Shown here one piece after another: positions 26,647 through 49,911 of a DNA stretch of 64,000 bases. A program made the position numbers and the translations under genes. The DNA is from an uncultured Actinomycetes bacterium (lineage in GTDB: Bacteria; Actinomycetota; UBA4738; HRBIN12): the NCBI GenBank assembly GCA_963796725.1, contig CAWCMT010000012.1, positions 2,026-66,025 on the forward strand, in the 5' to 3' direction. The notes under the pieces are model-generated. The model saw only the letters and a program-made list of their open reading frames with translations. It did no database searches and was not told the DNA's origin. Each line of letters opens with the position of its first letter. Within the stretch, counting starts at the first letter, position 1.

Positions 26647-27762
26647 TCATAGGACCGCCATGAGAGTTGCAGTCACTACAGCCTGCTCCGCTGCAGTAAG
26701 GGAGGCACCCATTGGCAGCGAAAGGACCTCATGCGCAGCAGATTCGCTGACGGGAAGAACCACGGCTTCCTTGCTGTACACGGGGGATTGATGGATCGGA
26801 GTTGGATAGTAAATAGCCGTATGGACGCCCGATTTGGCCATCGAGGTCTTGATGTCGTCTCGTGAAGCGGCCGGGAGCCTCACCGTATATTGGTGGAAGG
26901 CATGATTCACCTCTGGGCGGACGATGGGTGTATCCAAGCCGGGCAAGTGTGCCAGGCTCTCGGTATAGCCTGAAGCCACACGTCTGCGGGCCTCGATTGA
27001 CTCGTCGAGATGTCCAAGACCGACGCGTAGCAGGGCCGCCTGCATCTCGTCGAGTCGTGAGTTGTAGCCGAGTATCTCGTTTGCGTATTTCTCCTTCGAG
27101 CCATGCGAGCGCAACATGCGGCTAAGCTCTGCGACATTGTCGTCGTCGGTCACGATCATCCCGCCGTCGCCAAACCCTCCCAAATTCTTACTTGGGAAGA
27201 ACGAGAATGCAGCCGCGTTGCCCAAGCCTCCGAGCTTCTTGCCCTTGTATGATCCTCCCATCGCTTGAGTCGCGTCCTCGATAACCTTCAAGTGGCGCCT
27301 TCGCGCGATATCCATGATGCGGTCCATTTCGCAGGCATGGCCGAACAAGTGAACCGGCAGAATCGCACGCGTGCGGTCAGTGATGGCGTCCTCAATCAGC
27401 TCAGGATCGATGTTGAAAGAGGCCGCTTCGATATCCACGAAGACGGGGGTTGCGCCTACATTGCTCACTGACTCCGGGGTGGCAAAGAAGGTGAAAGGCG
27501 TGGTGATAACCTCGTCGCCCGGCCCAATCCCCAGAGCCCTGAGGCCGATGACAAGCGCATCGGTGCCAGAATTAACCCCGACGGCGTGCCTCACGCCAAT
27601 GTAGGCAGCAATCTCTTCCTCGAACGCTTCAACATTCGGTCCCAGGATGAACCGTCCCGAACGAAGCACCCCAGCGAATGCCTCGGTCAACTCACCCCAG
27701 TGTCGCTCTATCTCGGGCTGTAGGTCCAGCATGGGGATCTGACGCCTCATGCCCAAGTTCAC
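26647..27762 (-). CDS. DegT/DnrJ/EryC1/StrS PLP aminotransferase (WbpE-like)
   Basis: 'NSGTDAL', 'PVHLFG', 'IEDATQA', '[15 protein letters not shown]', '[12 protein letters not shown]'. Confidence 0.92.
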
Positions 27763-28340
27763 CCTTCCTCGGACCGTAGGACGTCGGATGCAACCTCACG
27801 GTACCTGCGCCCACACGATTGGCACACGGCCCAACCTTCACTGAGTTCGAGGACCGCGCCACACTCGCATGCCCACCCGACTCGGCGCGCGGGCACGCCA
27901 ACCATCAAAGCATACGGGGGCACATCAGCCGTAATCACGGCGCCGGCTCCGATGAAGGCCCACTCCCCCAAGGTAACCCCACACACCACGGTCACGTTAG
28001 CCCCAATCGTGACCCCCCGCCGCACAAGCGTTCGCCTGTAGTCCTCGACGCACGTCGGGTAGGCCGCCCGTGGGTTCTTCACGTTCGTGAAGACCATGGA
28101 TGGCCCGCAGAACACGAGATCCTCGAGCACCACGCCCTCGTAGATGGAGACGTTGTTCTGCACCTTGCAGCCGTCGCCGATGCTCACCCGGTCGGCCACG
28201 AACACGTTCTGACCTAGGCTGACGTCTCGCCCCACCACGGCGCCACTCATCACATGGGCGAAGTGCCAGATCTTCGAACCCTCCCCGATCTGGGCGCCCT
28301 CGTCGACGATGGCGCTGGGGTGCACGAAGCTCGCGCTCAC
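27759..28340 (-). CDS. Hexapeptide-repeat N-acetyltransferase (WbpD-like)
   Basis: '[20 protein letters not shown]', 'KVQNNVSIY', '[15 protein letters not shown]', 'GWACECG'. Confidence 0.9.
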
Positions 28341-31910: not shown

Positions 31911-33251
31911 GTGACGTCCCCCCCGTCCATGGTGCGTGATGACCCCGACTGGTCCCGTCTAGCAACGAAGATCGTCGATCGCACCGCCACCCTCGCCGTG
32001 CTCGGGCAGGGCTATGTAGGGCTGACCCTCGCCGCCGTCGCGGCCGCCGAGGGGTTCGCCGTCTGGGGCATCGACGTCGACCAGGCACGCGTGAACGGTC
32101 TGGCCGCCGGGCAGCAGGTGGTCCCGGGCGTCGATCCCGAGGAGCTCAGCGCAGGCACGAACAGCGGCAACCTGCGCTTCTCATACGTCCCCGATCCGGT
32201 GGCCGAGGCGGACATGATCTTGATCTGCGTCCCCACGCCGGTGTCCGACCACACCCCCGATCTCCGGTACGTGGAGGGCGCCGCTCGCGACGTGGCCGCC
32301 CACCTGCGTCCCGGTACGCTGGTGATCCTGGAATCCACCACCTACCCCGGGACCACCGACGCGCTCCTCAAGCCGATCCTGGAGCTCGGCTCCGGCCTCG
32401 AGGCCGGGAGGGATTTCCTCCTCGCGTACTCGCCCGAGCGCGTGGACCCGGGCAACGAGGAGTTCGGGATGCGGACCACCCCGCGCATCGTGGGCGGATC
32501 CACTCCCGAGGCCACGGAGATGGCCGTGGCCTTCTACACCACCTTGGTGGACAAGGTCGTCCCCGTCTCCACCACCCGTGCCGCCGAGACCGCGAAGCTC
32601 CTGGAGAACACGTTCCGCCACATCAACATCGCCCTGGTGAACGAGATGGCGATGCTCTGCCACGAGATGGGCATCGACGTCTGGGAGGTCATCGACGCGG
32701 CCGCCACCAAGCCGTTCGGCTACATGCCGTTCTACCCTGGCCCGGGCATCGGGGGGCACTGCATCCCGCTGGACCCCACCTACCTGGCGTGGCAGATCCG
32801 CCGCGAGTCCGGCCGCCGCTTCGGCGTGCTGGAGGCCTCCCAGGACGTGAACGAGCGCATGCCCAACTGGGTGGCCAGTCGCGCCACCGAGCTGCTGAAC
32901 GACCAGCACCGCTCGGTGCGCGGAGCCCGCGTGCTGGTGCTGGGCGTGGCGTACAAGGCCGATGTGGGTGACGTGCGGGAGTCCCCGGCCCTGCTGACGA
33001 TGCAGCTCCTGCATCGGCGCGGCGCCGACGTCCGGTTCCACGACTTCTTCGTGCGGGAAGCACAGCTGAACGGCGGCAGGGCGACGTGCGTGGCCGATCT
33101 CGAGACCGAGGTCGCGGAGGCCGACGTGGTGCTGCTGCTCACGCCGCACTCCGCCTACGACCTGGATGCGATCGCCGACCGGGCGAAGGTAGTCCTGGAC
33201 ACGCGCAACGCCTACGGGTCGGACCGCCGCCCCAACATCATCCCGCTGTAG
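31911..33251 (+). CDS. UDP-N-acetylhexosamine 6-dehydrogenase (WbpA/WecC family)
   Basis: 'GQGYVG', 'CVPTP', 'ESTTYPGTT', 'SPERVDPG', 'KLLENTFR', 'GGHCIPLDP', 'YKADVGDVRESP'. Confidence 0.93.
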   Translation: MTSPPSMVRDDPDWSRLATKIVDRTATLAVLGQGYVGLTLAAVAAAEGFAVWGIDVDQARVNGLAAGQQVVPGVDPEELSAGTNSGNLRFSYVPDPVAEADMILICVPTPVSDHTPDLRYVEGAARDVAAHLRPGTLVILESTTYPGTTDALLKPILELGSGLEAGRDFLLAYSPERVDPGNEEFGMRTTPRIVGGSTPEATEMAVAFYTTLVDKVVPVSTTRAAETAKLLENTFRHINIALVNEMAMLCHEMGIDVWEVIDAAATKPFGYMPFYPGPGIGGHCIPLDPTYLAWQIRRESGRRFGVLEASQDVNERMPNWVASRATELLNDQHRSVRGARVLVLGVAYKADVGDVRESPALLTMQLLHRRGADVRFHDFFVREAQLNGGRATCVADLETEVAEADVVLLLTPHSAYDLDAIADRAKVVLDTRNAYGSDRRPNIIPL

Positions 33252-34268
33252 CTAGCGAGCCGGAGCCACCAGCCCCTGCTCGATCTCTCCCACCGACTTA
33301 CAGCCCGCCAGCGCCATGACGTTGACGAGCTCAGCCCGCAGGATCCCCAGCACGTCGGCCACGCCCTCGGCGCCGCTCACCGCCAGGCCCCACGCCACCG
33401 GGCGGGCCACCATCACGGCCGTGGCCCCCAGCGCCAGGGCCTTCAGGACGTCGGTCCCCCGGCGCACGCCGCCGTCCACCAGGACAGGGACCCGGCCGCC
33501 GACGGCCTCCAGCACCTCGGGCAGCGCCCGCAGCGTGGCCGGCGATCCGTCCAGCTGGCGCCCGCCGTGGTTCGAGACCACGATCCCCTCGAGTCCCTGA
33601 TCCACCGCGATCCGGGCGTCCTCGGCGGTGAGGATGCCCTTCGCCAGGACCGGGAGCCCCGGCGCCGCCGAGCGGATCCAGTCCAGGTCGTCCCAGGTGA
33701 GCGCGGGCTCGAAGACCAGGTCGCCGCGCGCGCCGATCGGCAGCTCGAAGCCGCTGCGGGTGTCGCGGTGGCGCAGGCCCAGGAACGGGACGTCCACCGT
33801 CCACATCAGCGCCCCGTACCCGGCGGCCGCCACGCGCTGCAGCATGTCCCGGGTGCGCTCGCGGTCGGTGAACACGTACAGCTGCCACCACTTCGGTCCC
33901 GCCGTGGCTTGGGCGATGTCCTCCAGGTCCGCCAGCGCGGTCGAGGACACCACCATCACGGTCCCCGCCTCGGCGGCGCCGCGGGCGGTGGCGCGGTCGC
34001 CCTCGGCGTGCGCCATCTTCTGGTAGGCCCAGGGCGCCACCAGGATCGGCATCGACACGGGCACCCCCAGCACCGTGGTGGAGGGATCCGGCGTCCCCAC
34101 GCCGCGCAGCACGCGGGGCCGCAGCACCCAGTCGTCGTAGGCCCGAGGGTTCTCCCGCAGGGTGCGTTCGTCGCCGGCGCCGCCGGCGTAGAAGTCGTAG
34201 ACGTCGGGCGCCAGGAGGGCGCGCGCCGCCTCCTCGTAGTCGTCGACCGTGACGAAGTCGCCGCTCAT
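33252..34268 (-). CDS. FMN-dependent alpha-hydroxy-acid oxidase/dehydrogenase
   Basis: Starts [12 protein letters not shown] (ATG overlapping the IclR stop); 'LRPRVL', 'WWQLY', 'KGIL', 'VSNHGGRQLD', 'DGGVRRGTDVLKALALGA'. Confidence 0.9.
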   Translation of the reverse strand: MSGDFVTVDDYEEAARALLAPDVYDFYAGGAGDERTLRENPRAYDDWVLRPRVLRGVGTPDPSTTVLGVPVSMPILVAPWAYQKMAHAEGDRATARGAAEAGTVMVVSSTALADLEDIAQATAGPKWWQLYVFTDRERTRDMLQRVAAAGYGALMWTVDVPFLGLRHRDTRSGFELPIGARGDLVFEPALTWDDLDWIRSAAPGLPVLAKGILTAEDARIAVDQGLEGIVVSNHGGRQLDGSPATLRALPEVLEAVGGRVPVLVDGGVRRGTDVLKALALGATAVMVARPVAWGLAVSGAEGVADVLGILRAELVNVMALAGCKSVGEIEQGLVAPAR

Positions 34269-35067
34269 ACCCCGCCGCGCGCCGCGATCCGCCCCGCCCC
34301 CATCTCCCGGGAGAGGCCGCGCGCCGTCTCCTTCACCGTGGTCACGATCGTCGCTTGCGGATGACCTTCCGGCAGGATCCGCTCCACCGATCCCGATGAC
34401 CGCGATCGCACCCGCCACGTGCCCCCGGTGATCGAAGACCGGGGCGGCGATCTCGGCCTCCCCCACGATGGCCTCCTGATCCTCCAGGGCCAGGCCCGAT
34501 GCCGCCACGTCCTCCAGGACCGCGGCCAGGGCCTCGGGATCCGTCACCGTGCTGCCCGTGAGGCGCGCCAGCGGCGCCGCCAGGAGCGCCGCGCGGACCT
34601 CCGGCGCCACGTTCGCCACGATCGCCTTGCCCAACGCGCACGCGTGCCACGGGATCGAGGCCCCAACCTCCAGGATCTGCACCGAGTTGTCGGGGCGGAA
34701 CACGTGGTGCACGATCAGCACCGAGGGCCCGTGCATCACCCCCACGCGGACCGCCTCCCCCACCCGCGAGGCCAGCGAGTCGGCCCACAGCAGCGAGCGC
34801 CCCCGCAGCTCGTGGTTGTCCAGGAAGGCGTTCCCCAGCTGCAGCATCGCGGGGCCCAGCCGGTACTTGCCGGTCTCGGCGTCCTGCTCCACCAGCTCCT
34901 GCTGCTCCAGCGTGCGCAGCATCCCGTGCACGGTGCCCTTCGACGAGCTCCAGGCGCTCGGCCAGCTCGGTGACGCCCAGGCGCGAGGTGCCCGCGCCCA
35001 GCGCCTTCAGGATGCGCGCCGCCCGGTCGACCGACTGGATCGTCCCCCGGCGCTCGGGCCCACTCAT
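34265..35067 (-). CDS. IclR-family regulator, GylR-like (two frameshifts)
   Basis: '[14 protein letters not shown]...[37 protein letters not shown]', 'HHVFRPD....ILEVG', 'HACALGK'; divergent from glpF-glpK. Confidence 0.88.
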
Positions 35068-35726
35068 CCAACCCCGCCGGCGGAGGACGCCAGCGCGGCG
35101 AAGAGCAGGCCCGTCGACGTGGCGCCGGGATCCTGATGCCCGACGCTGCGCGGGCCGAGGTAGCTGGCCCGCCCCTTCCGCGCCTGCATCGGGATCGTGG
35201 CGTGCGCGCCCTCACGCGCGGCCTCGGCGGCACGCGTGGCCGCCACCTCGATCGTGTGCGCGGACCGCAGCTCGCGCTCCATGGCTACCAGGGCGGGCTC
35301 GTAGGCGTCGACGATCGTCTTGTCGCCCGCCACGGCCGCGCCCAGCCGTTGGATCCCGTCGAGGCCGGCGCGCAGCGCCTTCAGCAGGTCCTCGCCGTCG
35401 AAGGGGCCGGCCGTCGGCAGGGCCGAGCCCATATCTCGGAACATCGATCCGAACAGCGGCCCGGCGGCGCCGCCCACGCGTCGGATCAGCGTCGCCCCCA
35501 CGTGCTGCAGGACCTCCCCCGGCTCCAGGTCCCCGTCGGCCTCCAGGTCGGTGACCGCGGCGGAGAACCCCCGGTCCATGTTGACGCCGTGGTCGGCGTC
35601 GCCGATCGCGGCGTCCAGCTGGGTCAGGTAGTCGCGGTTGGCGGCGAAGCCATCGGCGCAGATGCGGACCCACCGTCGGACGAAGGCGCCGTCCAGCCGC
35701 TCCTGCGTCTCCATGCGCTCGCTCAC
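35064..35726 (-). CDS. dhaL: Dihydroxyacetone kinase ADP-binding subunit DhaL (second paralog)
   Basis: '[21 protein letters not shown]', '[10 protein letters not shown]', 'GDKTIVDA', '[21 protein letters not shown]'. Its TGA overlaps the IclR ATG. Confidence 0.9.
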
Positions 35727-35803
35727 ACCGCGGACACCTTCCGGCCCATGCCACATGCTTGTCAAGCCGACGCGCCGCGGTACCTCGGTGATCAACCCCA
35801 TGT

Positions 35804-35820
35804 GTTCGATGATACCGAAC
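35804..35820. promoter_or_regulatory. Candidate IclR/GylR operator (GTTCG-N7-CGAAC)
   Basis: Palindrome GTTCGATGATACCGAAC in the divergent intergenic region between dhaL2-iclR and glpF; a partial second copy (TTCGATACCAAACGA) lies at ~35845. Confidence 0.5.
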
Positions 35821-35936
35821 GGCGTCTGGCATCCCCGCAGAAGATTCGATACCAAACGACTATTGACTTCACAACCGGAACGGCATTGGCTAGGGGACAG
35901 ATGGGAGCTGCCCCGGGAGGGGCATGACAGAAGGGG

Positions 35937-36719
35937 GTGGTCACCCAGATGTTTTGGGGAGAAGTGGTTGGCACCGGAGTGCTGATCCTGCTCGGTGACG
36001 GCGTCGTCGCCGGCGTCCTGCTGAACAAGTCGAAAGCCCAGAACGGCGGATGGATCGTCATCACCTGGGCGTGGGGCATGGCGGTGACCATGGGTGTCCT
36101 CGCGAGCCTCGCCGTCAGCGGCGGCGTCGCGCACCTGAACCCGGCCGTGACGGTCGGACTGGCGGCCATCGGCGCCTACAAGTGGGCCGACGTGCCGATC
36201 ACGATCGCCGGTGAGTTCGTCGGCGCGATGATCGGCGCGATCCTCGTCTACCTCGCCTACCTGGTGCACTGGGCCGAGACCGAGGACCCGGGCCTCAAGC
36301 TCGCGGTCTTCAGCACCGGCCCCGCGATCCGCAACACCGCGGCGAACCTGATCACGGAGATCATCGGCACGGCCATGCTGCTGCTCGGCGTCCTGTCGAT
36401 CAGCGGGCTCTACATGGGCAAGGTCGGTCTGACCGGTGCCCTGGCGACCGGCGCCCTGCCGGTGGGCCTCCTGGTGTTGGTCATCGGTCTGTCCCTCGGT
36501 GGACCGACCGGGTACGCGATCAACCCGGCTCGAGACCTCGGGCCGCGCATCATCCACGCCATCCTTCCGATCGCCGGCAAGGGCGGCTCGGACTGGGCGT
36601 ACTCGTGGATCCCGGTGGTCGGGCCGATGATCGGAGGCGTGATCGGCGCGTTCATCGCCAAGTGGGTCTTCGACCTGACTTTCGTACTGACCGCGCGGGC
36701 GGACGGGGGGGTCGGCTGA
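35937..36719 (+). CDS. glpF: Glycerol uptake facilitator (MIP aquaglyceroporin); true stop may be ~36690
   Basis: 'HLNPAVT', '[17 protein letters not shown]', '[13 protein letters not shown]'. Confidence 0.95.
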
Positions 36720-36734
36720 CCCCCTCGCGTCCGC
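36699..36734 (+). terminator. GC-rich stem-loop between glpF and dhaK
   Basis: GCGGACG-GGGGGGTC-GGCT-GACCCCC-TCG-CGTCCGC inverted repeat; no U tract. Confidence 0.4.
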
Positions 36735-36761
36735 ATCTGCACAGGAGGTGAGGCACACACG

Positions 36762-37764
36762 ATGAAGAAGCTCATCAACGACACCGCCGATGTCGTACGC
36801 GAGTCGCTCCAGGGAGTGGAGGCGGCGCACGGCGACCTGGTGAAGGTGTTCTACGACCCGTACTACATCGTGCGGGCCGACGCCCCGGTCAAGGGCAAGG
36901 TGGCCCTGGTCTCGGGCGGCGGCTCCGGCCACGAGCCCATGCACGGAGGCTTCGTGGGCATGGGCATGCTGGATGCGGCCTGCCCGGGCGAGGTATTCAC
37001 CTCCCCCACCCCCGACCAGATGGAGGCGGCCACCAAGGCCGTCGACGGCGGGGCGGGCGTGATCCACATCGTCAAGAACTACACCGGCGACGTCATGAAC
37101 TTCGACATGGCCGCCGAGCTCTGCCGCGCCGCGGGCACCGACGTCGAGGCCGTGGTGGTCGATGACGACGTGGCGGTCCAGGACTCCCTCTACACGGCCG
37201 GGCGCCGCGGCGTCGGGGACACCGTGCTGATGGAGAAGATCGCGGGCGCGGCCGCGGAGGAAGGGCGGCCGCTGAAGGAGGTCGCCGACATCTGCCGCGA
37301 GGTGAACGCCAACGGCCGCTCGCATGGGCATGGCGCTCACGTCGTGCACGGTGCCCGCCGCAGGCAAGCCCACCTTCGAGTTGGGCGACGACGAGATGGA
37401 GATCGGCATCGGGATCCACGGCGAGCCCGGTCGCGAGCGCATGAAGATCAAGAGCGCGGCCGAGATCGTGGAGATGATGGCCACGGCCGTGGCCGACGAC
37501 TTCCCGCTCGCGAGCGGCGATCGCGTCCTGGCGTTCGTCAACGGCATGGGCGGCACGCCCCTGATCGAGCTCTACATCGTCTACAACGAGCTGGCGAAGT
37601 TCCTCAAGGGTCGTGGCGTCACGATCGAGCGGAACCTGGTCGGCTCCTACATCACGTCGCTCGAGATGGCGGGGTGCTCGATCACCCTGCTGAAGCTGAA
37701 CGACGACTTCATCAAGCTGTGGGACGCGCCCGTGAAGACGGCCGGCCTGCGCTGGGGCGCCTGA
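36762..37764 (+). CDS. dhaK: Dihydroxyacetone kinase subunit DhaK (frameshift ~37322)
   Basis: 'MKKLIN', '[23 protein letters not shown]', 'KNYTGD..NF', 'GIGIHGEPG', 'TSLEMAG'. Confidence 0.95.
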
Positions 37765-37800
37765 GGTCTATCCGATGGCGCGGAAGGAGGAGGTGACAGG

Positions 37801-38437
37801 GTGAGCGTCACCTACGCGGACGCCCTCAGCTTCGTCCGCGGGTTCGCGGCCATGGTGGCCGAGAACAAGACGTACCTGACCGAGCTGGACTCCGCGATCG
37901 GCGACGCCGACCACGGGATCAACATGGACCGGGGGTTCACCGCGGTCCTCGACCAAGCTCGACGGGCTGCCCGAGGACGACATCGGGGCCCTCTTCAAGA
38001 CGGTGGGCATGACCCTCGTGTCCACCGTCGGGGGGGCCAGCGGGCCCCTCTACGGCACCTTCTTCCTGCGTCTGGCCGTCGCCACCGATGGGAAGGCGGA
38101 GATCGGCGCCGAGGACTGGCGCGCGGCGCTCTCCGATGCCATCGACGGCGTCCAGGCGCGGGGGAAGGCCGAGCCCAACGACAAGACCATGCTGGACTGT
38201 CTATGGCCCGCCCAGGCGGCCCTGGGGGAGGCGCTCGATGAGGGCGCCTCCTTCGCCGAGGCGTTGCAACGCTCGGCCGCCGCCGGGGAGGACGGGATGA
38301 AGGCCACGATCCCATTGGTGGCCAGGAAGGGACGCGCCAGCTACCTGGGCGAGCGCAGCGCCGGGCATCAAGACCCCGGCGCCACGTCGTCGTTCCTGTT
38401 GCTGAAGACCGTCGCCGACACATGGGCCGGCGCCTGA
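37801..38437 (+). CDS. dhaL: Dihydroxyacetone kinase subunit DhaL (frameshift ~37960)
   Basis: '[18 protein letters not shown]', '[10 protein letters not shown]', 'DKTMLD', '[21 protein letters not shown]'. Confidence 0.93.
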
Positions 38438-38462
38438 GACGAAGAACGATAGGAGGCAAGTC

Positions 38463-39963
<1,501 letters not shown>

Positions 39964-39973
39964 CCGGTGCGTC

Positions 39974-40069
39974 GCATCCTCCCGCGCGCGATGCGGGCGG
40001 GAGGGTGCACCACCAGATGTGGAGGGTCCCGCGGACGGACCGCACCGCCGACCGCGGGACCCCTCCACA
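39974..40069 (+). terminator. Two tandem stem-loops after glpK (39974-40008 and 40018-40069)
   Basis: GCATCCTCCCGC...GCGGGAGGGTGC, and TGTGGAGGGTCCCGCGG...CCGCGGGACCCCTCCACA (17-bp arm with one extra C). Confidence 0.55.
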
Positions 40070-40086
40070 GGATCGGGAGGCGACAC

Positions 40087-40317
40087 ATGGACGACGGGGA
40101 AGAAGGACAAGGCAAGGACGAGCACGAGGGCGACTTCGCCGAGGGGCAGGAGACCGAGCCCGAGAGGACGAGCATGTCGGGGACGTTCGCCACGGGCGAG
40201 GAGAAGGGCGAGGGCCCGGAGGTCGGTGGACGCGAGGGCGACTTCGCCAAGGGGCAGGAGACCGAGCCCGAGAGCGAGCACCGCGGGGACTTCGCCGAGG
40301 GCCGAAGAGGAACCTAA
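40087..40317 (+). CDS. Small acidic repeat protein (four G[DT]FAxG repeats)
   Basis: GGGAGG RBS at 40075-40080, then [26 protein letters not shown]...GTFATGEEK...[23 protein letters not shown]; GC-rich third positions. Confidence 0.7.
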
Positions 40318-40340
40318 CGACGACTGAGCCCTCGGTGGCG

Positions 40341-41627
40341 ATGATGCCGGTATGGCTGCGAGCGGGCGCCTCGCAGCACGTCTTGATCGTCGGCGGTGGG
40401 GGCACCGGCGGCGCGCTCGCGCACGACCTCGCGCTGCGGGGACTGAGGGTCACGCTCGTGGAGCGGGGCGAGTTCACCTCCGGCACCACCGGGCGCCACC
40501 ACGGCCTGCTCCACTCCGGCGGCGCGCTACGCGGTGAACGACCAGGAGTCCGCCGATCGAGTGCATCGAGGAGAACCGGATCCTGCGCAAGATCGCGCCG
40601 GGGTCCTTCGAGGAGAACGACGGGCTGTTCGTCGCCGATCACCGACGAGGACATGGACTACCTGCCGCTGTTCATGGACGGCTGCGAGGCCACCGGCATC
40701 CCCACGCAACGGTACGGGCCCCAGGAGGCCCTGGCGGTCGAGCCGATGCTCAACCCGGAGCTGAAGGCCGCCGTGCGCGTGCCCGATGCCACGATGGATG
40801 CCATGCGCATGCCGCATGCGCTTCTTCGCCACCGCCAAGGCCAACGGCGCGCGAGCTCCTGAACTACGTGGAGGTCACGGGCATCCTGACGTCCAGACGC
40901 GGCGCGTGGACGGCGCGGCCGTGCGCGACCAGGTCACCGGGCGCGACGCCGAGATCCACGCCGACCTCGTGGTCAACGCCACCGGGCCATGGTCGGAGAA
41001 GCTGGCCGCGATGGCCGGCGGTGGACGTGCCCATCCGCCCCTCCCCCGGCGTGATGCTGGCGCTGCGCGGGCGCCTGTGCAACATGGTCGTGAACCGCCT
41101 GCACCGCTCCGGCGACGGCGACATCGTGGTGCCCCAGCGCGGGCTCTCGGTGGTGGGCGACGAGCTCGTGGACGGTGGAGGACCCCGATGAGCTCGACGT
41201 CCCCGAGGACCACGTGCGCCGGATGGTCGAGGAGGGGTCGAAGCTGATCCCGGCCGTGCGCACGGCGGCGTTCCGCGCGGCGTGGTCGGCGGCGCGGCCC
41301 CTGATCGGCTCGACGGAGGACGCCGACTCAGCGGCCGCGAGCTGTCGCGCACGTTCAAGACGATCGACCACGCCGCAGACCGACGGCGCTGGAGGGCTTC
41401 GTCACGATCACCGGCGGCAAGGGCACCACGCTGCGCGGGCATGGCCGAGCTGTGCGCGAACGTGGTCTGCGGCAAGCTCGGCGTCGACGACGCCCTGCCG
41501 GACGCGCGACACGGTCCTGCTCCCCCACACCGCCTACTTCGCGAACGAGCGTGATGACGATGGCGCAGACCACCAGCGCGGCGCTCGCCGCCGGATGCCC
41601 AGACCGCCGCCGGCGGGCACCCGATGA
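40341..41627 (+). CDS. glpA: FAD-dependent glycerol-3-phosphate dehydrogenase subunit A, short form (multiple frameshifts)
   Basis: '[25 protein letters not shown]...[36 protein letters not shown]', 'VNATGPW', '[20 protein letters not shown]...CRT' match GlpA signatures. No C-terminal BFD-like Cys domain is visible. Confidence 0.88.
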
Positions 41628-42330
41628 CCGGGCACGCGCACGGTGAAGGTCTTCCGCTTCAAGCGGGGCGACGCGGATCCTCACTACGAGGAGTACGAGG
41701 TCCCGGTGGGCGACCGGACCACCGTGACTCGAGGCCCTGCGCTGGATCCAGATCCACCGCGACACGCACCCTGGCGATCCGCCACTCCTGCCTCCACGCG
41801 TCCTGCGGCACCTGCGGGCTCCGCGTGAACGGCCGCGAGGGCCTGGGCTGCGTCACGGCGCTGGAGGACGTGGGCGGCGACGTGGTGACGATGGAGCCGA
41901 TGGCGAACCTCCCGGTCCTCAACGACCTGGTCATCGACATGGCGCCGTTCGTGGAGCGGTTCCCCGCGCCGCACCCCATCATCCGCGGCAGCGAGTTCCT
42001 GCGGCAGGCCATCCCCGCCGGAGGGCGTGGAGCACTGGGAGCGCTTCGAAGACTGCATCGAGTGCGGGCTCTGCCTCTCGGCGTGCCCGGTGGCCGCCAC
42101 CGACGACACGTACGTCGGGCCCGCCGCCCTCGCCTACGCCCAGCGGCTGCTGGAGGAGGCGCGCGGCGCGGACCGCGAGGCGATCCTGGACTGGGCCGAC
42201 GACGACGCCGCGGCCTGGCGGTGCCACGCCGCGTTCGAGTGCACCGAGGCCTGCCCCTCGAACGTGCGGCCGGCGCAGCGGATCATGGCGCTGCGCAAGG
42301 AGCTGCAGCGCCGGGAGGGGGTCCTCATGA
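41624..42330 (+). CDS. Succinate dehydrogenase/fumarate reductase-type iron-sulfur subunit (SdhB/FrdB-like)
   Basis: 'VKVFRFK', 'RHSCLHASCGTCGLRVNG...GC' (2Fe-2S), 'EPMANLPVLNDLVID', 'CIECGLCLSACP' (4Fe-4S), 'YVGPAAL', 'CHAAFECTEACP' (3Fe-4S). Its ATG overlaps the glpA TGA. Confidence 0.9.
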
Positions 42331-42784
42331 GCGACCGCACGCCCCGCCGATCCCGGCCTGGAGGCGCTGCGCGACGCGCGGAGGGCGCCGGGCCCGGTGC
42401 CGCGCAAGGGCCTGGGGACGGCCCGGTCGCATGGTTCGATATCCGCCGCGGCGGGCTCGGGCACTTCGCGTTCTCCCTGAACCGCATCACGGGGCTCGGC
42501 CTGGTCTTCTACCTCTACCTGCACCTGGCGGTGCTCTCGTTGCTGCTGGGCGGCGCGTCCTCGTGGAGCGGGTTCCTGGCCCGGGCCACAACGCCGATCT
42601 TCCTCGGGCTCGACGTGCTGCTGATCTTCGGGCTGCTGGCACACGGGCTCAACGGGCTGCGGCGTGGCGCTGGTGGGCAGCGGCTTCGCCACGGACCATC
42701 AGAAGGCCCTGTACTGGTCGGCCGCGATCTTCGGCACGATCCTGCTGATCGGGGCCGCGCTGCACATCTTCGGGGAGCGGATGA
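42327..42784 (+). CDS. SdhC-like cytochrome b membrane anchor
   Basis: 'FSLNRITGLGLVFYLYLHL', 'LLAHGLNGLR', three hydrophobic helices; frameshift ~42662. Confidence 0.8.
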
Positions 42785-43167
42785 TGGCCACGACGACGAA
42801 GGTCAACGGGCTCGGGCGGCTCCCGCACGCGCACGTGGCATATGGACCTCGCTCACCGGCGTGGCGCTGCTGGTCCTGGTGACGGTGCACATGGTCGCCA
42901 ACCACTTCGTGGTCGAGGAGGTGGGCGGGCTCCGCACCTACCAGCAGGTGCTCGACTACATCGGCAACCCCCTGATCTTCGTGCTGGAGATCGTCTTCCT
43001 GGTCGTCGTGACCGTGGCACGCGATGCTCGGCCTGCGCTCCGTCCTGTTCGACTTCGGGCTGTCCGAGCGCTCCCGGCGCCTCGCGAACCGCGGGCTCGC
43101 GGTGCTGGGCGTCCTCACGGTGGCCTACGGCATCGTCCTGATCAGCATCCTGGCGTCGAGGGCCTGA
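42784..43167 (+). CDS. SdhD-like hydrophobic membrane anchor
   Basis: 'WTSLTGVALLVLVTVHM', 'TYQQVLDYIGNP', 'HAMLGLRSVLFDF', three helices; frameshifts ~42835 and ~43015. Confidence 0.78.
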
Positions 43168-43176
43168 GAGGCCGCC

Positions 43177-45684
43177 GTGGTCGGGATCGTCATCGTCTCC
43201 CATAGCTTCCGCATCGCCGAGGGCGTCGCCGAGCTGGCGCGCGAGATGGGCGGGCCCGACGTGCGCCTGGAGACCGCGGGGGGCCTGGACATGCCCGAGC
43301 ACCCGATCGGGACGGACGCCGCCCTGGTGATGGCCGCGATCGATCGCGCGTGGTCCGAGGACGGCGTGCTGGTGCTGATGGACCTGGGCAGCGCCGTGCT
43401 CTCCGCCGAGATGGCCCTGGAGTTCCTCGACGAGGATCGGCGCGGCAAGATCCTGCTCTGCGAGGCGCCGCTGGTGGAGGGCGCGGTCTCGGCCGCGGTC
43501 ACGGCGAAGATCGGCGCCTCGCTCGAGGCGGTGGCGGCCGAGGCGCGCGGCGGCCTCGCCGGCAAGATCGCCCACCTGGGGATCGAGCCCGATCGGGCCG
43601 CTGCGTCGGCGGAGGCGATGAGGGCGACGCCGGGGAGGAGGTCGCGGCCCGCCTGAAGGTCCGCAACCCTCACGGCCTGCACGCGCGCCCCGCGGCGCGG
43701 TTCGTCCAGACGGCCTCGGGGTTCGACGCGCGGGTGAGCGTCCTCGACCTCACGAACGGGCGCGGGCCCGCCGACGCCGCCAGCCTGAACGGCGTGGCCA
43801 CGCTGGGGGTGGCGCGCGACCACGAGATCGAGGTGCGCGCGTCGGGGCCGAGGCGGCCGAGGCGATCGAGGCGCTGCGCGCGCTCGCGGACCGCGACTTC
43901 GACGAGGGACCCGAGGCCGAGGTCGAGGCCGCGCCCGGCGTGCCGGATGCGGCCGGGCTCGCTGGAGCCGGCCGAGCGCCGGGACCGTGCGGGGGTTCGC
44001 GGCCTCGCCCGGGCATCGCGCTCGGGCGCGGCGCGGCGCTTCCACGTGGAGGACCCCGAGATCCCCGACGTCGCCGCGAGCGACCCGGCCGCCGAGCTGG
44101 CGGCCCTGGAGCGCGCGATCGGTGAGACCGCCGTGGACATCCGCGCCCAGCGCGACCAGGTGGCCGCGCGTGCCGGTGAGGCCCAGGCCGCGATCTTCGA
44201 CGCGCACCTGCTGTTCCTGCGCGACGAGGCGCTGCTGGCGCCCGCGCCGGCGCTCGATCCACGCCTACAAGCGCACTGCCGCCCAGGCCTGGCGCGGCGT
44301 CGGTCCACGAGACCGCGGCGGCCTGGGACGGCCTGGACGACGAGTACCTGCGGGCGCGCGCGGCGGACCTGCGGAGCGTGGGCGCCCAGGTCCTGGCGCA
44401 CGTGCTGGGCCTGCCGGTCCCCCGCCCCCACCTGGAGGCCCCGGGGATCCTGGTGGCGGAGGACCTCACACCCGCCGACACCGCGGGACTGGACCCGGAG
44501 GCGACGCTCGGGATCGCGACGGCGCGCGGCGGACCGACGTCGCACGCCGCGGTGCTCGCCAGGGCGCATGGGCATCCCCGCCGTGGTGGCGCTGGGCGAC
44601 GCGCTGGGCGAGGTGCAGGAGGGCACCGCCGTGGCGCTCGACGGCGACCGCGGGCTCCTGCTGATCGAGCCCGCCGAGGCGGAGCGGGCGGCGTTGGAGG
44701 AGATCCGCGACCGGCGCGCGGCGCGAGGTGGCGCGAGCGCGGGCCGTGGCGGCCGGTCCCGCGGTCACGGTGGACGGCGCGACGATCGAGGTGGCGGCGA
44801 ACATCGGCACACCCGCGGAGGCCGCCGGGGCCGTGGCCGCCGGCGCGGACGGCGTGGGGCTGTTCCGGACGGAGTTCCTCTTCATGGGCCGCGACGCGAT
44901 GCCCGACGAGGACGAGCAGACCGCGGCCTACGTCGCGGCCGCCGAGGCGCTGGCGGGGCGTCCCCTGCTGATCCGCACGCTGGACGCCGGCGCCGACAAG
45001 CCGATCCCCTACCTGGGCCAGGACCCGGAGGCGAACCCGTTCCTGGGGGTGCGCGGCCTGCGGCTGGGGCTGGCGCGTCCGGAGCTGCTGGCGGCGCAGC
45101 TGCGCGCGGTCGTCCGCGTCGCCGAGGCGGGACACCGGATCCGCGTGATGTTCCCGATGGTGGCCACGCTGGACGAGCTCCTGGCGGGGCGCGCCGCCCT
45201 GGAGGAGGCGCGAGGCCGCACGGGGTCCGGCGGCGCGGCTCGAGGTCGGCATCATGATCGAGGTGCCCGCCGCGGCCCTGAACGCCGCCGCGCTCGCCGA
45301 GCACGTGGACTTCTTCTCGATCGGCACGAACGACCTGACGCAGTACACCGCTGGCCGCCGACCGCGGGAACGAGCACGTGGCGGCCCTCAACGACCCGCT
45401 GCACCCGGCGGTGCTGCGCCTGATCCGGGCGACCGTGCAGGGCGCGGAGATCCACGGCCGCTGGGTGGGCGTCTGCGGCGAGCTCGCGGCTGACTCCGGC
45501 GACGCCGCTGCTGCTGATCGGGCTGGGCGTCACGGAGCTCTCGATGAGCGCGCCGGCGGTCGCCGCGGTGAAGGAGGCGGTGCGCGCCACGGAGACGGGC
45601 GCCGCGCGGCGGCTCGCCGACGCGCGCCCTGGCGTGCGCGAGCACGGCCGGAGGTGCGGGCGTGCTCCTGCCCGGGCGTGCTGA
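43177..45684 (+). CDS. dhaM: DhaM(EIIA)-HPr-Enzyme I multidomain phosphotransferase (multiple frameshifts)
   Basis: 'IVIVSHS' and 'MDLGSA' (EIIA), 'HGLHARPAA' (HPr), 'TSHAAVLAR', 'GLFRTEF', '[10 protein letters not shown]', 'MIEVP', 'SIGTNDL', 'GVCGE' (complete EI). Confidence 0.88.
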
Positions 45685-45717
45685 GGGACCGTCGCTGCTA
45701 CGATGCGGCGCACCGCT

Positions 45718-46297
45718 GTGACCACCGCCGACGACGCGCCGCCGCGTTCCTCACGTTCATCACGTACCTGCGCATCGCGCTCACCCCGGTCGTGATGGCG
45801 TTGATCATCTGAACGCCGATCGCTGGAGTCCTGGGCGATCCCCGTCGCCGCCGTGCTGTTCGCGTTCGCGGCCCTCACGGACTTCTTCGACGGACGGCTC
45901 GCGCGCCGATGGAAGCAGACCACCTCGCTCGGCAACTTCCTGGACACCACGGCGGACAAGCTCCTGGTCTCCGGCGTGCTCGTCGCCCTGGTGCAGGCGG
46001 GCCGCGCCTCGGCGTGGGCGGCGTTCATCATCATCGGCCGCGAGCTCGCTGATCCTGGGGCTGCGCGGCGCGGTCTCGGCGGCCGACGGCACGGTCGTGA
46101 AGCCCTCGATCTGGGGCAAGCTCAAGGCCAACGTCCAGTTCCTCGCGATCCTGCTGGCGATCTGGCAGCCGGACGTCACGATCGGGTCGTGGCGGCTCGA
46201 CCAGGTCGGGATGGCCGTCGCCGTGGCCGTCACGATCGCCTCGGGCGTGGAGTACGTCGCGCGGTTCGGGAGCGTCCTGGCCGGCCGGGACGGCTGA
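45718..46297 (+). CDS. pgsA: CDP-alcohol phosphatidyltransferase (PgsA-like), frameshifted
   Basis: 'ITYLRIAL.P', 'TDFFDGRLARR....SLGNFLDTTADK', 'GRE', 'WGKLKA..Q'. Confidence 0.82.
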
Positions 46298-47285
46298 GTG
46301 GGGCCCGCCTTCATCACGGGCGCCAGCGGCTTCGTGGGCGGGGCCGTCCTGCGGCACCTGACGGTCCGCAGGCCGCGAGGTCCGCGCGCTGGCGCGCAGC
46401 GACGCCGCGGAGGCGTCGCTCCGCGGGGCCGGCGCGCGCCCGCAGCGGGGCGACCTCTTCGACCAGGAGGCCTGCTGGTCGGCATGCGCGGCTGCTCGAC
46501 CGTCTTCCACGTGGCGGGGGTCAACGCGAACTGCCTGCGCGACCCGCAGCCCATGATCCACGTCAACGTCGAGGGCACGGCCAGCGTGATCCGGGCGGCG
46601 GCCGCGGCCGGGGTGCGCGCGGTTGATCCACACGTCGTCGGCCTCGGCGATCGGCGAGGCCGCCGGCGTCGTGGGACGCGAGGACACGCCGCACCGCGGG
46701 CACTTCCTCTCCGACTACGAGCGCTCGAAGTTCCTCGCCGAACGGCGGGCGCTGTCGCTGGGTGAGGAGCTGGGGATCGAGGTCGTCTGCGTCAAGCCGT
46801 CGTCGGTGCAGGGGCCGGGGCGAACCGAGGGCTCCGCCCGCTTCTTCATCGACCTGCTGAACCGGCGCCGTCCCCCCGTCGTCGAGACCTGGGTCTCCGT
46901 GGTGGACGTCGACGACTGCGCGGCGGGGCACCTGCTGGCGGAGTCCGCGGGCGTGCCCGGGCGCCGCTACCTCCTGAACGGCACCAGCCTCACCACGGCG
47001 GAGGCCGTCGAGCTCCTGCGCACCGTGGCCGGGCGCCCCGAGCACGTCCTGCGGATCCCGCGCGGCAGGGGTCCGGATCGCGGGGAGCCTGGCGGGGGCC
47101 TGGGGGCGCCTCTCGCGGCGCCAGGTCCCCTTTGCCCCGAGGTGGCGCGCACGATCCTGCACGGACATCGCTACGACGGCTCCCTCGCCGAACGCGAGCT
47201 GGGCCTGCGCTACCGCCCGGCCGAGGAGACGGTCCGCCGCACGCTGGCGTGGTACGCCGACCGGGGCATCGTCCGCCCGGCGTAG
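46298..47285 (+). CDS. NAD-dependent epimerase/dehydratase (HpnA/dihydroflavonol-reductase-like), frameshifted
   Basis: 'ITGASGFVG', 'VFHVAG', 'NVEGT', 'HTSS', 'YERSK', '[10 protein letters not shown]'. Confidence 0.82.
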
Positions 47286-47329
47286 GATGACGCCGCACCG
47301 GTTCCCGCACGACCTCAGGGAGGACTCTG

Positions 47330-48323
47330 ATGACCGACGCCGCACGACCCGACCGCAACCTCGCGATGGAGCTGGTCCGCGTGACCGAGGCCGCCGCGCT
47401 GGCCGCCGGGCGCTGGATCGGCCACGGCGACAAGATCGCGGCCGACGGCGCCGCCGTGGACGCCATGCGCCTGATGATCGACACCGTCTCGATGCCGGCA
47501 CGGTCGTGATCGGCGAGGGCGAGAAGGACGAAGCGCCCATGCTCTTCAACGGCGAGGAGGTCGGCAACGGGGACGGGCCCGGGACCGACGTGGCGGTCGA
47601 TCCCGTCGACGGCACCACGCTCACCGCGTGGGGCAGCCCAACGCCCTCGCGGTGATCGCGCTGGCCGAGCGCGGGACGATGTTCTTCCCGGGCGCGGCCG
47701 TCTACATGGAGAAGATCGCCTGCGGCGCCGGAGGCGGCGGAGGCCATCGACATCACTGCCCCCCGACGAGAACGTGCGGCGCGTGGCCAAGGCCAAGGGC
47801 GTGCATCCCGAGGACATCGCCGTGACCGTCCTGGATCGCCCGCGCCACGCCGAGATCGTCGCGTCGATCCGCAGCGTCGGCGCCCGCGTCTACCTCATCT
47901 CCGACGGCGACGTGGCGGGCGCGATCGCGGCGGCGGCGCCCCGCACCGGCATCGACCTGCTCTACGGGATCGGCGGGACGCCCGAGGGGGTGATCGCGGC
48001 GGCGGCGCTGAAGTGCCTGGGCGGCGCGATCCAGGGACGCCTCTACCCGCGCGACGACGCCGAGCGCGCGACCGCTGGTCGACGAGGGACTCGACCTGGA
48101 CGCCGTGCTGACCACCGACGATCTCGTCAGCGGCGACGACGTCTTCTTCGCCGCCACCGGCATCACGGACGGCGCATTGCTGCGAGGCGTCCAGTACTGG
48201 TCCGACGGCGCCACCACCTACTCCATGGTGATGCGGTCGCGTTCGGGCACGGTGCGCTACGTCGAGGCGCACCACCAGTTCGAGAAACTCGAACGATTCT
48301 CCTCGATCGCCTACCGTCGCTGA
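47330..48323 (+). CDS. glpX: Class II fructose-1,6-bisphosphatase (frameshifted)
   Basis: '[19 protein letters not shown]', '[14 protein letters not shown]', 'DPVDGT', 'SDGDV', 'GIGGTPEGV', 'FAATGITDG'. Confidence 0.93.
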
Positions 48324-48410
48324 GCATGGCTCGGGCCGTCGCCACCCCTTGGTAATCCGTGCCATTTCGCGTATCCTTCACGCAACTTCAGCACCCATGG
48401 GGGGAACGGC

Positions 48411-48686
48411 ATGGCGGAGACGAACGATCCTGGTATGCGACACGTGCGGGCAGGCCCGCGGCGGAGACCGTCACGATCAAGCGTCGAGCGGGGCAACTTC
48501 GTGAAGGACCTGTGCGGCACCCACGTCAACGAGCTCCTGTCGGGCGCCCGCAAGCCCCGTCCCGGACGGCGCAAGGGCGTCGCCGCCGCCTGCCGCGGCA
48601 GCCCCGCCGCCAAGCCGGCGAAGAAGACGACGGCCGCCGCGCCGAAGAAGCGCGGCCGCCCCCGGAAGACCCCCGCGGCGTCCTAG
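48411..48686 (+). CDS. Small basic Lsr2-like nucleoid-associated protein with AT-hook tail
   Basis: Removing three single-base insertions gives MAERTILVCDTCGRPAAETVTIKVERGNFVKDLCGTHVNELLSGARKPRPGRRK...PAKKTTAAAPKKRGRPRKTPAAS. Confidence 0.65.
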   Translation: MAETNDPGMRHVRAGPRRRPSRSSVERGNFVKDLCGTHVNELLSGARKPRPGRRKGVAAACRGSPAAKPAKKTTAAAPKKRGRPRKTPAAS

Positions 48687-48898
48687 CGCTTCGCCGGCGT
48701 AGACGCCCTTCCCCGCACGCTCCACCGCGCCTTCGGCGTACAGCGCGCGCAGCGCGCGCTGTACGGCCTGCGGACGTCGGGCGTCGTGAACGGGTCCAGC
48801 CAGGCCCGCGCTTGAGCGCGCGGTCCTGGATCACGGTCCAATGCAGCGGCTCGCCGGCCTCGTCCAGCACGGCCACGCACGGCCTCCCGCACCTCCAC
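48683..48898 (-). CDS. Small winged-helix protein (HARE-HTH-like), frameshifted
   Basis: Reconstructed as MEVREAV.AVLDEAGEPLHWTVIQDRALKRG.LDPF...ALYAEGAVERAGKGVY. Confidence 0.55.
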   Translation of the reverse strand: MEVREAVRGRAGRGRRAAALDRDPGPRAQARAWLDPFTTPDVRRPYSARCARCTPKARWSVRGRASTPAKR

Positions 48899-48901
48899 GC
48901 G

Positions 48902-49911
48902 CTAGCTCCGCGAGCGGGCGCCAGCACGCGATGTCGCGAACAGATCCAACATGCTCGGGCTCGGGGATCGCGAACGGCAGCACCCACGGCGCCACGACGA
49001 TCTCCTCGACCCCCAACGCCTCGAACTCCCGGACCCGTTCGATGACCTGCGCGGGCGTGCCCGAGAGCGTGTCCGCGCACCATCCCTCGTAGGTATCGGC
49101 GTCCATCGCGCCCCCCGGCATCGCGGCGCGTCCACGCTCGAACGCCGCACGCGCCGCTGCCTCGTCCTCCCCGATCAGGCTGTAGAGACCGATCGATCGA
49201 TGGAACGTGGCGGGATCGCGGCCCACGTCCTCGCACGCTGCGTTCGACGGCCTCGCATGCGTCCCGCGTACCGGCCCGGGGCCACCCGCCACACGACGTT
49301 CCATCCCGTGCCGTGGCGGGCCGCGAGCGCGCAGCAGCCGCGGCCCGCCCTTGCCGCCCACCCACACGGGGATCCGCTCCTGCACCGGCGGGGGCAGCAA
49401 GCGCGCGCCGCGCAGCGTGACGGTCGGGTCCGTCGAACGTCGACCGGCGCCCCCGAGCCCATCGCGTCCAGGACCGCCAGCGTCTCCTCCAGGATGTCGA
49501 ACCGCTCGCCGAGCGTGCCGAACCGGTAGCCGAAGGCGGCGAACTCCGCCTCCAGCCAGCCCGCTCCGAGGCCGAGGTCGAGCCGCCCGCCGCGAGATGC
49601 CGTCGATCGTGGCCGCCATCTTCGCCAGGAGCGCCGGATGCCGGAACGAGCGCGCAGAGCACCAGCGCGCCCAGGCGGACGCGCTCGGTGACGGCCGCCA
49701 GTCCGGCGAGGGCCGTCAGCGGCTCGAGCGACGCGATCGGCGCCGGGTCGGCGCCGTAGCGGGCGAACGAGTAGAAGAAGTGATCGGAGACCCAGACCGA
49801 GTCGAAACCCGCGGCCTCGGCCCGCCGGGCCCACGCCGCCATGGCCTCGAACGTGATGGGTTCCCCCGGGAGCGAGAATCCGTAGTGCGGCAGGCTCAGA
49901 CCGAAACGCAT
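48902..49911 (-). CDS. Luciferase-like (LLM) flavin/F420-dependent oxidoreductase, frameshifted
   Basis: 'MRFGLSLPHY', 'GFDSVWVSDHF', 'AAVTERVRLG', 'GRLDLGLGAGW', 'PVWVGGKG'. Confidence 0.88.

Follow-up and report, generated by a model that had tools for sequence, protein, structure and literature searches.

The 64,000-nucleotide stretch of DNA analysed here (the window; bases 2026-66025 of contig C12, GenBank CAWCMT010000012.1, in the high-GC, 75% complete, 3.14 Mb genome, in 13 contigs, of an uncultured Actinomycetes bacterium) contains, within a glycerol operon, four consecutive genes that encode a truncated GlpA-type flavoprotein (glpA-short), an SdhB/FrdB-like iron-sulfur subunit (sdhB2) and two membrane anchors similar to SdhC and SdhD (sdhC2 and sdhD2). 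Together, these genes are likely to encode a membrane-bound glycerol-3-phosphate (G3P):menaquinone oxidoreductase that resembles Complex II and in which a GlpA-type flavoprotein takes over the position of SdhA. This kind of enzyme is already named, as a prediction only, in archaea (see below), and the locus described here is a bacterial member; what is new is the wider bacterial distribution, the separate clade of SdhB proteins and the interchangeable downstream subunits. Respiratory oxidation of G3P is taught as the function of GlpD or GlpABC, and Complex II as SdhA or FrdA on an SdhB wire; this locus joins G3P oxidation with the Complex II wire.

Under the proposed mechanism, glycerol would enter the cell via GlpF and would be phosphorylated by GlpK, after which the 398-amino acid GlpA core would oxidize G3P to dihydroxyacetone phosphate (DHAP) on a non-covalently bound flavin adenine dinucleotide (FAD). 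SdhB2, which is translationally coupled to GlpA-short, would receive the electrons from the FAD in its [2Fe-2S] domain and carry them through its [4Fe-4S] and [3Fe-4S] clusters to an SdhC/SdhD-type diheme anchor, and this anchor, with its four conserved histidines, would reduce menaquinone at a putative quinone site. The G3P/DHAP couple is far more reducing than succinate/fumarate, so that menaquinone reduction would be exergonic.

Subunits of the four-gene module

A sequence-only reading of the window had described a glycerol operon in which a GlpA-type gene is followed by an SdhB/FrdB-like gene and two anchor genes, and this layout is recovered in full by Pfam and tblastn searches: glpF, dhaK, dhaL and glpK lie upstream, dhaM and glpX lie downstream, and the flavoprotein, the iron-sulfur subunit and two Sdh_cyt-type anchors are all present in the raw sequence. 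The frames of the raw sequence are broken, and its fragments match Pfam domains as follows: DAO in 40341-40862 (E 1e-21), Fer2_3 in 41750-42040 (E 1.8e-17), Fer4_8 and Sdh_cyt in 42027-42680 (1.4e-11 and 1.1e-6, respectively) and, weakly and under the cut-off, Sdh_cyt in 42843-43167 (E 0.0033). The reported absence of SdhA-, GlpB- and GlpC-like genes from the window also agrees with profile searches of its contig, where the sole PF00890 match is the Rossmann start of glpA-short itself (40377-40499), the sole TIGR03379 match is the Fer4 region of sdhB2 (42042-42311), and the GlpB profile has zero matches.

The protein-level family scores of the four subunits are those of the orthologues from a same-genus relative, G012, where all four are intact and closely spaced (locus L032, 7174-8370, 8367-9137, ~9137-9583 and 9580-9966). 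The GlpA-short orthologue matches the GlpA model TIGR03377 over positions 1-378 of 530 (E 2.5e-135) and is recognized as a GlpA catalytic FAD domain by NF008313 (E 8.3e-120), with the runner-up families scoring far lower (GlpO, 102.6 bits; ThiO, 80 bits). At 452 bits, it falls under the TIGR03377 equivalog cut-off of 552.8 and does not qualify as a full-length GlpA, a shortfall that is explained by the 150 missing C-terminal model positions. The Pfam matches of this protein consist of DAO plus weaker FAD/NAD(P)-binding domains, with no Fer2_BFD, no DAO_C (PF16901), the domain that marks GlpD, and no Succ_DH_flav_C; Fer2_BFD is present in the canonical long relatives of GlpA. The match to PF00890 is weak, scoring 39 bits and covering positions 1-212 of the 414 in the model, whereas the SdhA of the genome matches the full model at 380.6 bits, and the combination of FAD_binding_2 and Succ_DH_flav_C that typifies the catalytic flavoprotein of Complex II, SdhA/FrdA, is lacking. 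The flavoprotein is thus GlpA-like, not SdhA-like, as originally proposed. With the BFD-type [2Fe-2S] exit domain lost, the electrons would have to leave GlpA-short through the [2Fe-2S] domain of SdhB2, which suggests that a GlpA devoid of its own iron-sulfur exit domain can use that of SdhB instead.

SdhB2 scores 188.5 bits against the SdhB/FrdB model TIGR00384 (cut-off 88), and its 11 cluster cysteines, all present in the window, are invariant across 24 sequences from several phyla, in motifs that correspond to the [2Fe-2S], [4Fe-4S] and [3Fe-4S] clusters and account for the ligands of all three clusters of SdhB/FrdB. The three motifs are read in the translations of the open reading frames (ORFs) of the window as SCLHASCGTCGLRVNGREGLGC, CIECGLCLSACP and CHAAFECTEACP, just as first noticed. 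The solved structures nearest to SdhB2 are the SdhB subunit of Mycobacterium smegmatis Sdh2 (6LUM, E 2.7e-36), E. coli FrdB and E. coli SdhB, and the TfrB model NF004898 is matched as well (E 1.2e-40). Identity to the canonical SdhB of the same genome is 34% in G012. The [2Fe-2S] motif of SdhB2 is all-cysteine, whereas the canonical SdhB of the same genus has aspartate as the third ligand (in G012, CGTC in SdhB2 of L032 and CGSD in the canonical SdhB of L129), a simple sequence mark that separates the two SdhB paralogues.

Both anchors belong to the Sdh_cyt family (cut-off 25.8), with scores of 40.2 bits (E 4.2e-10) for the SdhC2 orthologue and 51 bits (E 1.9e-13) for the SdhD2 orthologue. The anchor motifs NRITG, HGLNGLR and MLGLRSVLFD are all legible in the ORF translations. 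SdhC2, which contains approximately 3-4 frameshifts in the window, is characterized by the NR(I/V)TG motif, the histidine of YLYLHL and the histidine of HGLNG, and its residues H63, H103, R50, N106 and R109 are invariant in 20 sequences. SdhD2 contains the motifs HMVANH and W-H-x-M-L-G-L-R; no exceptions to H42, H80 and R86 occur among 19 sequences, and H37 and D91 are kept in at least 90% of them. The SdhC2 profile matches 6lum_C (E 4.4e-20), and the SdhD2 profile matches both 6lum_C and 6lum_D. In the profile alignment to 6LUM, H63 and H103 of SdhC2 and H37 and H80 of SdhD2 correspond to histidines C47, C87, D65 and D107, the residues that, according to PMC7447783, axially coordinate hemes bD and bP in this diheme enzyme. 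Type A anchors consist of two Sdh_cyt subunits, each of which supplies two histidine ligands to the hemes; at the sequence level, the module has the same composition, and its anchor therefore looks like a type A diheme-b anchor, with predicted heme binding.

Frame breaks and integrity of the genes

Frameshift-aware alignment of the G012 proteins with the window requires ~13, 5, 3 and 3 shifts in glpA-short, sdhB2, sdhC2 and sdhD2, respectively (~24 in total), mostly of +1 nt. In the corrected sequences, 338 of 396, 187 of 252, 114 of 148 and 92 of 127 residues, respectively, are identical to those of G012. A density of ~24 frameshifts in 2.8 kb, that is, a break about every 100 nt in the raw sequence, could mean that the locus is a decaying pseudogene cluster without a function in this genome, but such decay appears extremely improbable. 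The adjacent dhaK, dhaL, glpK and dhaM genes are broken likewise (tblastn with G012 proteins), and contigs from 4 other public runs, 88-99% alike, have one base fewer at each of several break sites (41376, 41388, 41437, 42664, 42772, 42805/6, 42839 and 43014), which coincide with the shifts required by the alignment of the window. All of the 12 relatives examined carry intact orthologues, and the four genes are under purifying selection, with median pairwise dN/dS values of 0.19, 0.23, 0.33 and 0.36 (11 sequences, 55 of 55 pairs), which are rough because dS is high and the codon bias is strong. Furthermore, a lower-GC island at 14-28 kb contains long unbroken ORFs, unlike the high-GC parts of the window, which fits composition-dependent sequencing error. 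Given that the neighbouring genes are also broken, that independent contigs lack the extra bases and that the genes of the relatives are intact, the frame breaks in the window are assembly errors, and the four genes are most likely intact in the organism.

The frame breaks also affect the junction between the first two genes. The sequence-only reading placed the overlapping stop and start codons in an ATGA at 41624-41627; this ATGA exists, ends one raw ORF and starts the next one, but the sequence around it is frameshifted. Homology puts the end of the flavoprotein near 41546-41557, at GTGATGA, and therefore, the true glpA-short/sdhB2 junction is probably located ~70 nt upstream of that ATGA. 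A 4-nt overlap between the glpA stop and the sdhB start is found in 14 of the 14 Actinomycetota loci that were checked (9 of these from the same genus) and in 19 of 29 loci overall.

Independence from SdhA, distribution and substrate

The genome carries a complete canonical sdhC-sdhD-sdhA-sdhB operon on another contig, C9, so that the locus in the window is not the only sdhBCD set, and the canonical sdhA sits in its own operon. The linked subunits SdhB2, SdhC2 and SdhD2 could, however, represent a second succinate dehydrogenase/fumarate reductase set that employs the canonical SdhA or another SdhA-like protein during growth on glycerol, with GlpA-short functioning alone or with another acceptor and the adjacency of the genes reflecting co-regulation only. 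SdhB2 does pass the generic model TIGR00384, one SdhA is present in the genome, and Actinomycetota can hold multiple Sdh isoforms, for example, Sdh1 and Sdh2 of M. smegmatis. Nevertheless, this arrangement is very unlikely: the canonical operon already owns its B, C and D genes, sdhB2 is translationally coupled to glpA-short and not to any sdhA, the flavoprotein has lost its own exit cluster with the BFD domain, and none of the 71 loci that carry the pair has an adjoining sdhA-like gene, by the queries used. Furthermore, among 10 genomes with the module, one SdhB of each type, canonical and linked, is encoded in 8, and the linked sdhB stands alone in 2; in one of these two, Succ_DH_flav_C has no match, and in the other, which consists of a single 3.07-Mb contig, the only match scores 46 bits and lies 1 Mb away. 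The lack of an SdhA partner also speaks against succinate oxidation or fumarate reduction by the module.

The topology common to the flavoprotein and SdhB-like trees also speaks against a spare succinate dehydrogenase and for a GlpA-containing complex. In a tree of 45 proteins, the SdhB-like sequences form a clade of their own, with the 37 glycerol-linked proteins separated from 8 canonical SdhBs of the same genomes at a support of 98 in the Shimodaira-Hasegawa-like approximate likelihood ratio test (SH-aLRT). Among 67 flavoproteins in a second tree, the 7 GlpBC-linked GlpAs are set apart from the other 60 (SH-aLRT 99); 59 of the 60 are SdhB-linked, and one, from locus L117, has no linked sdhB. 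The major clades of the two trees largely match: in both, the Actinomycetota branch from inside a Chloroflexota group, and a few records from odd phyla occupy matching places, which fits transfer of the pair as a unit. Five truncated GlpAs of archaea other than Thermofilum (from Pyrofollis, two Nitrososphaerota, a Thermoplasmatota and a Thermoprotei metagenome-assembled genome (MAG)) form a separate clade that is sister to the bacterial SdhB-linked clade with a weak support of 87. The proposal of the sequence-only reading, that GlpA replaces SdhA on a Complex II wire, is thus supported by the synteny, the GlpA-type flavoprotein, the separate sdhCDAB operon and the distinct clade of SdhB proteins.

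The synteny, the conservation of which was an expectation of that reading, extends far beyond the window. The order glpA-short, sdhB2, sdhC2, sdhD2, dhaM, with open frames, is present in 12 of the 12 same-genus genomes examined. Of 24 genomes of the same genus, 22 carry a second SdhB-like gene, which is 51-75% identical to the fragment in the window, and none of 16 same-order genomes of other families does (best identity at most 46%); the same-genus and same-order counts include the unpublished genomes G019, G029 and G037. In an even sample of 400 Actinomycetota species genomes (including 11 unpublished ones, none of them among the carriers), the pair was found in 16, 13 of which are among the 22 genomes of the family of the window, and in all 16, glpA-short is upstream of sdhB2, and both anchors are downstream. 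The respective samples for Chloroflexota, Spirochaetota and Thermodesulfobacteriota yielded the pair in 15 of 300, 2 of 200 and 2 of 200 species genomes, all these counts being of pairs found or not found among the genomes searched. In these samples, the pair is rare and patchy, with ~4-5% of the sampled Actinomycetota and Chloroflexota species genomes carrying it. The carriers include a cultured isolate, Thermanaerothrix solaris, whose locus (L077) has the SdhB-like gene and both anchors, and a complete Nitratidesulfovibrio genome, which makes the enzyme directly testable.

A cross-phylum survey, limited to one genome per species, covered the 80 top-ranking GlpA relatives out of at least 600, with the downstream context identified by tblastn at E 1e-4, so that anchors or partners may be missed or lie beyond the ends of short contigs. 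The pair is present in 71 of these 80 nearest loci. In 35, glpA is followed by the SdhB-like gene and both anchors (22 Chloroflexota, 11 Actinomycetota, one record labelled Planctomycetota and one unplaced), and in 36, by the SdhB-like gene only (21 Spirochaetota, 6 Thermodesulfobacteriota, 3 Chloroflexota, 1 Bdellovibrionota, 1 Myxococcota and 4 unplaced). Canonical glpBC follow in 5 loci (3 Bacteroidota, 1 Bacillota and 1 Pseudomonadota), the contig ends at glpA in 3, and neither an SdhB-like gene nor glpBC is found in 1. The loci reduced to the core, with no recognisable anchor downstream, are exemplified by L089 (Nitratidesulfovibrio sp. HK-II) and L091 (Sphaerochaetaceae), along with 34 others; in L091, the pair is preceded by a two-component system and a sodium:solute symporter, not by glpK. 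The record labelled Planctomycetaceae MAG (L054) is a 16-kb contig that carries the whole dhaK-dhaM operon, with 64-89% protein identity to the actinobacterial G012, and may be a mis-binned contig.

A third downstream arrangement came from a search for longer forms, in which ~70 SdhB2-like proteins (48-59% identity) are fused to CCG domains (PF02754). The fused gene directly follows glpA-short in 10 of the 10 metagenome loci with an SdhB2-type N-terminus, and the GlpA-short proteins of these loci are 74-78% identical to that of G012. In these loci (L176-L182, L188, L196 and L213), the fused gene encodes ~530 amino acids, and there are no SdhC/D-like anchors; some of the fused proteins are labelled Solirubrobacteraceae by the source. 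An apparently in-frame natural GlpA-SdhB fusion of 682 amino acids (P0337) is present on 10 contigs. Five other candidate fusions of DAO and Fer2_3 (P0346, P0355, P0303, P0350 and P0359) were rejected because their out-of-frame stretches are frameshift artefacts, and the long GlpA relatives of 580-1000 amino acids, also considered as possible SdhB fusions, turned out to be GlpAs with BFD or GlpA-GlpB fusions.

Taken at its broadest, the glpA-short/SdhB pair would mark an old and distinct branch of the Complex II superfamily, horizontally mobile and so far uncharacterised, which has this pair as its conserved core and in which a DAO-fold dehydrogenase replaces SdhA. The branch would be present in at least five bacterial phyla, its core being followed, depending on the lineage, by an SdhCD anchor with two hemes, by a fused CCG domain or by no anchor, and it would provide the first example of an SdhB wire at the service of a flavoprotein other than SdhA. 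We consider this generalization moderately probable. The locus in the window itself suggests that the SdhB/SdhCD electron wire is separable from the dicarboxylate flavoprotein and reusable by an unrelated flavoenzyme fold.

With regard to the substrate, the genome of the window, at 75% completeness, contains no DAO_C (GlpD-type), GlpB or GlpC match above the cut-offs, and neither DAO_C nor GlpB is detected in five relatives that are 94-97% complete and all carry glpK beside the module. The truncated GlpA is therefore the only candidate respiratory G3P dehydrogenase found. As a separate observation, in one Streptosporangiaceae MAG (L066, 6001-13030), glpA-short, sdhB2, sdhC2 and sdhD2 are directly followed by canonical full-length glpA, glpB and glpC, so that one locus carries both systems.

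The complex could be assembled as proposed and yet oxidize a different substrate, such as a small hydroxy or amino acid, as enzymes of the DAO family often do. The score of GlpA-short below the GlpA equivalog cut-off (452 versus 552.8) and the anchor-less relatives, where glpK is seldom adjacent and one locus has the symporter (SSF) upstream, are compatible with this alternative, which is nonetheless very unlikely for the locus described here. In the window, glpF, dhaK, dhaL and glpK precede glpA-short, from which glpK is separated by no more than a small ORF; 29 of the 35 anchor-bearing loci have glpK immediately upstream; the low score is accounted for by the truncation; the next best families are far behind; and in the five nearly complete glpK-bearing relatives, no other respiratory G3P dehydrogenase was found.

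Several points weigh against the assignment of the module as a GlpA-containing Complex II-like G3P:menaquinone oxidoreductase. The association of the subunits and the enzyme activity are what we infer from the sequences. Both anchors score under the NCBIfam cut-offs for SdhC and SdhD (35.9 versus 52.3 and 32 versus 41.8, respectively). Among the anchor-less loci, glpK is directly upstream in only 7 of 36, and one has a sodium:solute symporter instead, so that the substrate can be assigned with less certainty for the wider family than for this locus. The trees come from quick searches, with SH-aLRT values only and without bootstraps, and the canonical SdhB outgroup consists of 8 sequences, two of them on long branches. 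Finally, P0337, the sixth of the candidate fusions, could be a frameshift artefact like the other five.

Known systems and the surrounding genes

The E. coli-type GlpABC catalyzes the same oxidation of G3P, with menaquinone as the acceptor, and has in common with the module the homologous catalytic FAD core (TIGR03377 positions 1-378). Unlike GlpABC, this locus is without the BFD [2Fe-2S] domain of GlpA, without GlpB and without GlpC with its CCG domains, the partners GlpB and GlpC being undetectable in the window and, above cut-offs, in the genome; SdhB- and SdhCD-like subunits are there instead. The best solved match to SdhB2 and both anchors, M. smegmatis Sdh2 (6LUM), has the same positions of the cluster cysteines and of the four heme-ligand histidines; it differs from this locus, which has no SdhA and for which the proposed donor, G3P, is much more reducing than succinate. 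The SdhB2-CCG fusions recall the SdhB and SdhE subunits of type E succinate dehydrogenases, TfrB-like SdhB proteins with CCG and GlpC, whereas the version in the window has heme-b anchors, not CCG domains.

The closest precedent is archaeal. Schmerling et al. (Commun Biol 2025, PMC11962113) describe, in Thermofilum pendens and its relatives, glpA followed by counterparts of sdhB, sdhC and sdhD next to glycerol kinase, propose that these counterparts provide membrane anchoring and electron transfer, and include a drawing of the reconstructed complex. The architecture is the same as in the window, namely, glpA-sdhB-sdhC-sdhD in a glycerol locus; the Thermofilum complex is archaeal, unpurified and known from synteny and a model figure, and the one described here is bacterial. 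The only enzyme characterised in that paper is GlpA-CoxG of Sulfolobus acidocaldarius, which similarly consists of a truncated GlpA without the iron-sulfur C-terminus and a non-GlpBC partner for membrane association; this partner, however, is small, CoxG-like and devoid of redox cofactors, in contrast to an SdhB/C/D wire. According to the same paper, the glpA of Bacteria is consistently accompanied by glpB and glpC (PMC11962113), a statement that the bacterial glpA-short/SdhB loci contradict. The initial impression that no such complex is characterised holds for the literature searched, but the arrangement itself had already been named, as a prediction, for Thermofilum. In a full-text search, the term GlpA-SdhBCD occurs only in Schmerling et al. 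and its preprint, and no bacterial description of GlpA-SdhBCD was found in searches the scope of which did not extend to subscription journals and the supplements of PMC11962113. For the purposes of annotation, metabolic reconstructions from MAGs should leave these copies of sdhB, sdhC and sdhD out of the count of succinate dehydrogenase genes.

The operon occupies the + strand between 35.9 and 48.3 kb of the window (Table 1), with an epimerase gene and then glpX following the dhaM-HPr-EI fusion.

Table 1. Genes of the glycerol operon in the window
Feature	Position	Strand	Basis and remarks
glpF	35937-36719	+	Pfam MIP
dhaK	36762-37764	+	Pfam Dak1; tblastn with G012 proteins; frameshifted
dhaL	37801-38437	+	Pfam Dak2; tblastn with G012 proteins; frameshifted
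glpK	38463-39963	+	Pfam FGGY_N; tblastn with G012 proteins; frameshifted
Small acidic, His-rich repeat ORF	40087-40317	+	Conserved position and repeat pattern in relatives
glpA-short, truncated GlpA-type FAD flavoprotein, ~398 amino acids	40341..41557, end approximate	+	DAO match; orthologue alignment
sdhB2, SdhB/FrdB-like iron-sulfur subunit, ~256 amino acids	41551..42330, start and end approximate	+	Pfam Fer2_3, Fer4_8
sdhC2, SdhC-like three-helix anchor, ~148 amino acids	42327..42784	+	Sdh_cyt; 6lum_C profile match
sdhD2, SdhD-like three-helix anchor, ~128 amino acids	42781..43167, TGA stop 43165-43167	+	Sdh_cyt in orthologue
dhaM-HPr-EI fusion (EIIA-man + PTS-HPr + PEP-utilizers)	43177..45430	+	Pfam, tblastn; frameshifted

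The small ORF between glpK and glpA-short contains four G-x-F-A-x-G-(Q/E) repeats, and both the pattern and the position are kept in 5 of 5 aligned genomes; the G012 copy encodes 84 amino acids (L032:6894-7148). This ORF has no Pfam or NCBIfam match and only 3 matches in a word-based protein search, a tandem repeat finder detected nothing in the glpK-glpA spacer, and the ORF is absent from the Chloroflexota loci, where these spacers are short. No Rfam family matched in 33000-49000, and a promoter and terminator scan of the G012 operon yielded nothing beyond the shuffled expectation.

Just upstream of glpF, on the opposite strand, lies a second dhaL-like gene (35073-35672, -), which is 47% identical to the DhaL of G012 and is conserved in the relatives. 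It is preceded in the window by a single open frame (33252-34931, -) that combines an IclR C-terminal domain with a full flavin mononucleotide-dependent alpha-hydroxy-acid dehydrogenase domain and may consist of two genes merged by a frameshift. Farther away, at 14000-28000, the lower-GC island (0.57-0.60 compared with ~0.70) harbours a polysaccharide biosynthesis cluster that includes genes for glycosyltransferases, a Wzy-like protein, Polysacc_synt_3, a UDP-GlcNAc 2-epimerase, a DegT aminotransferase and YdjC.

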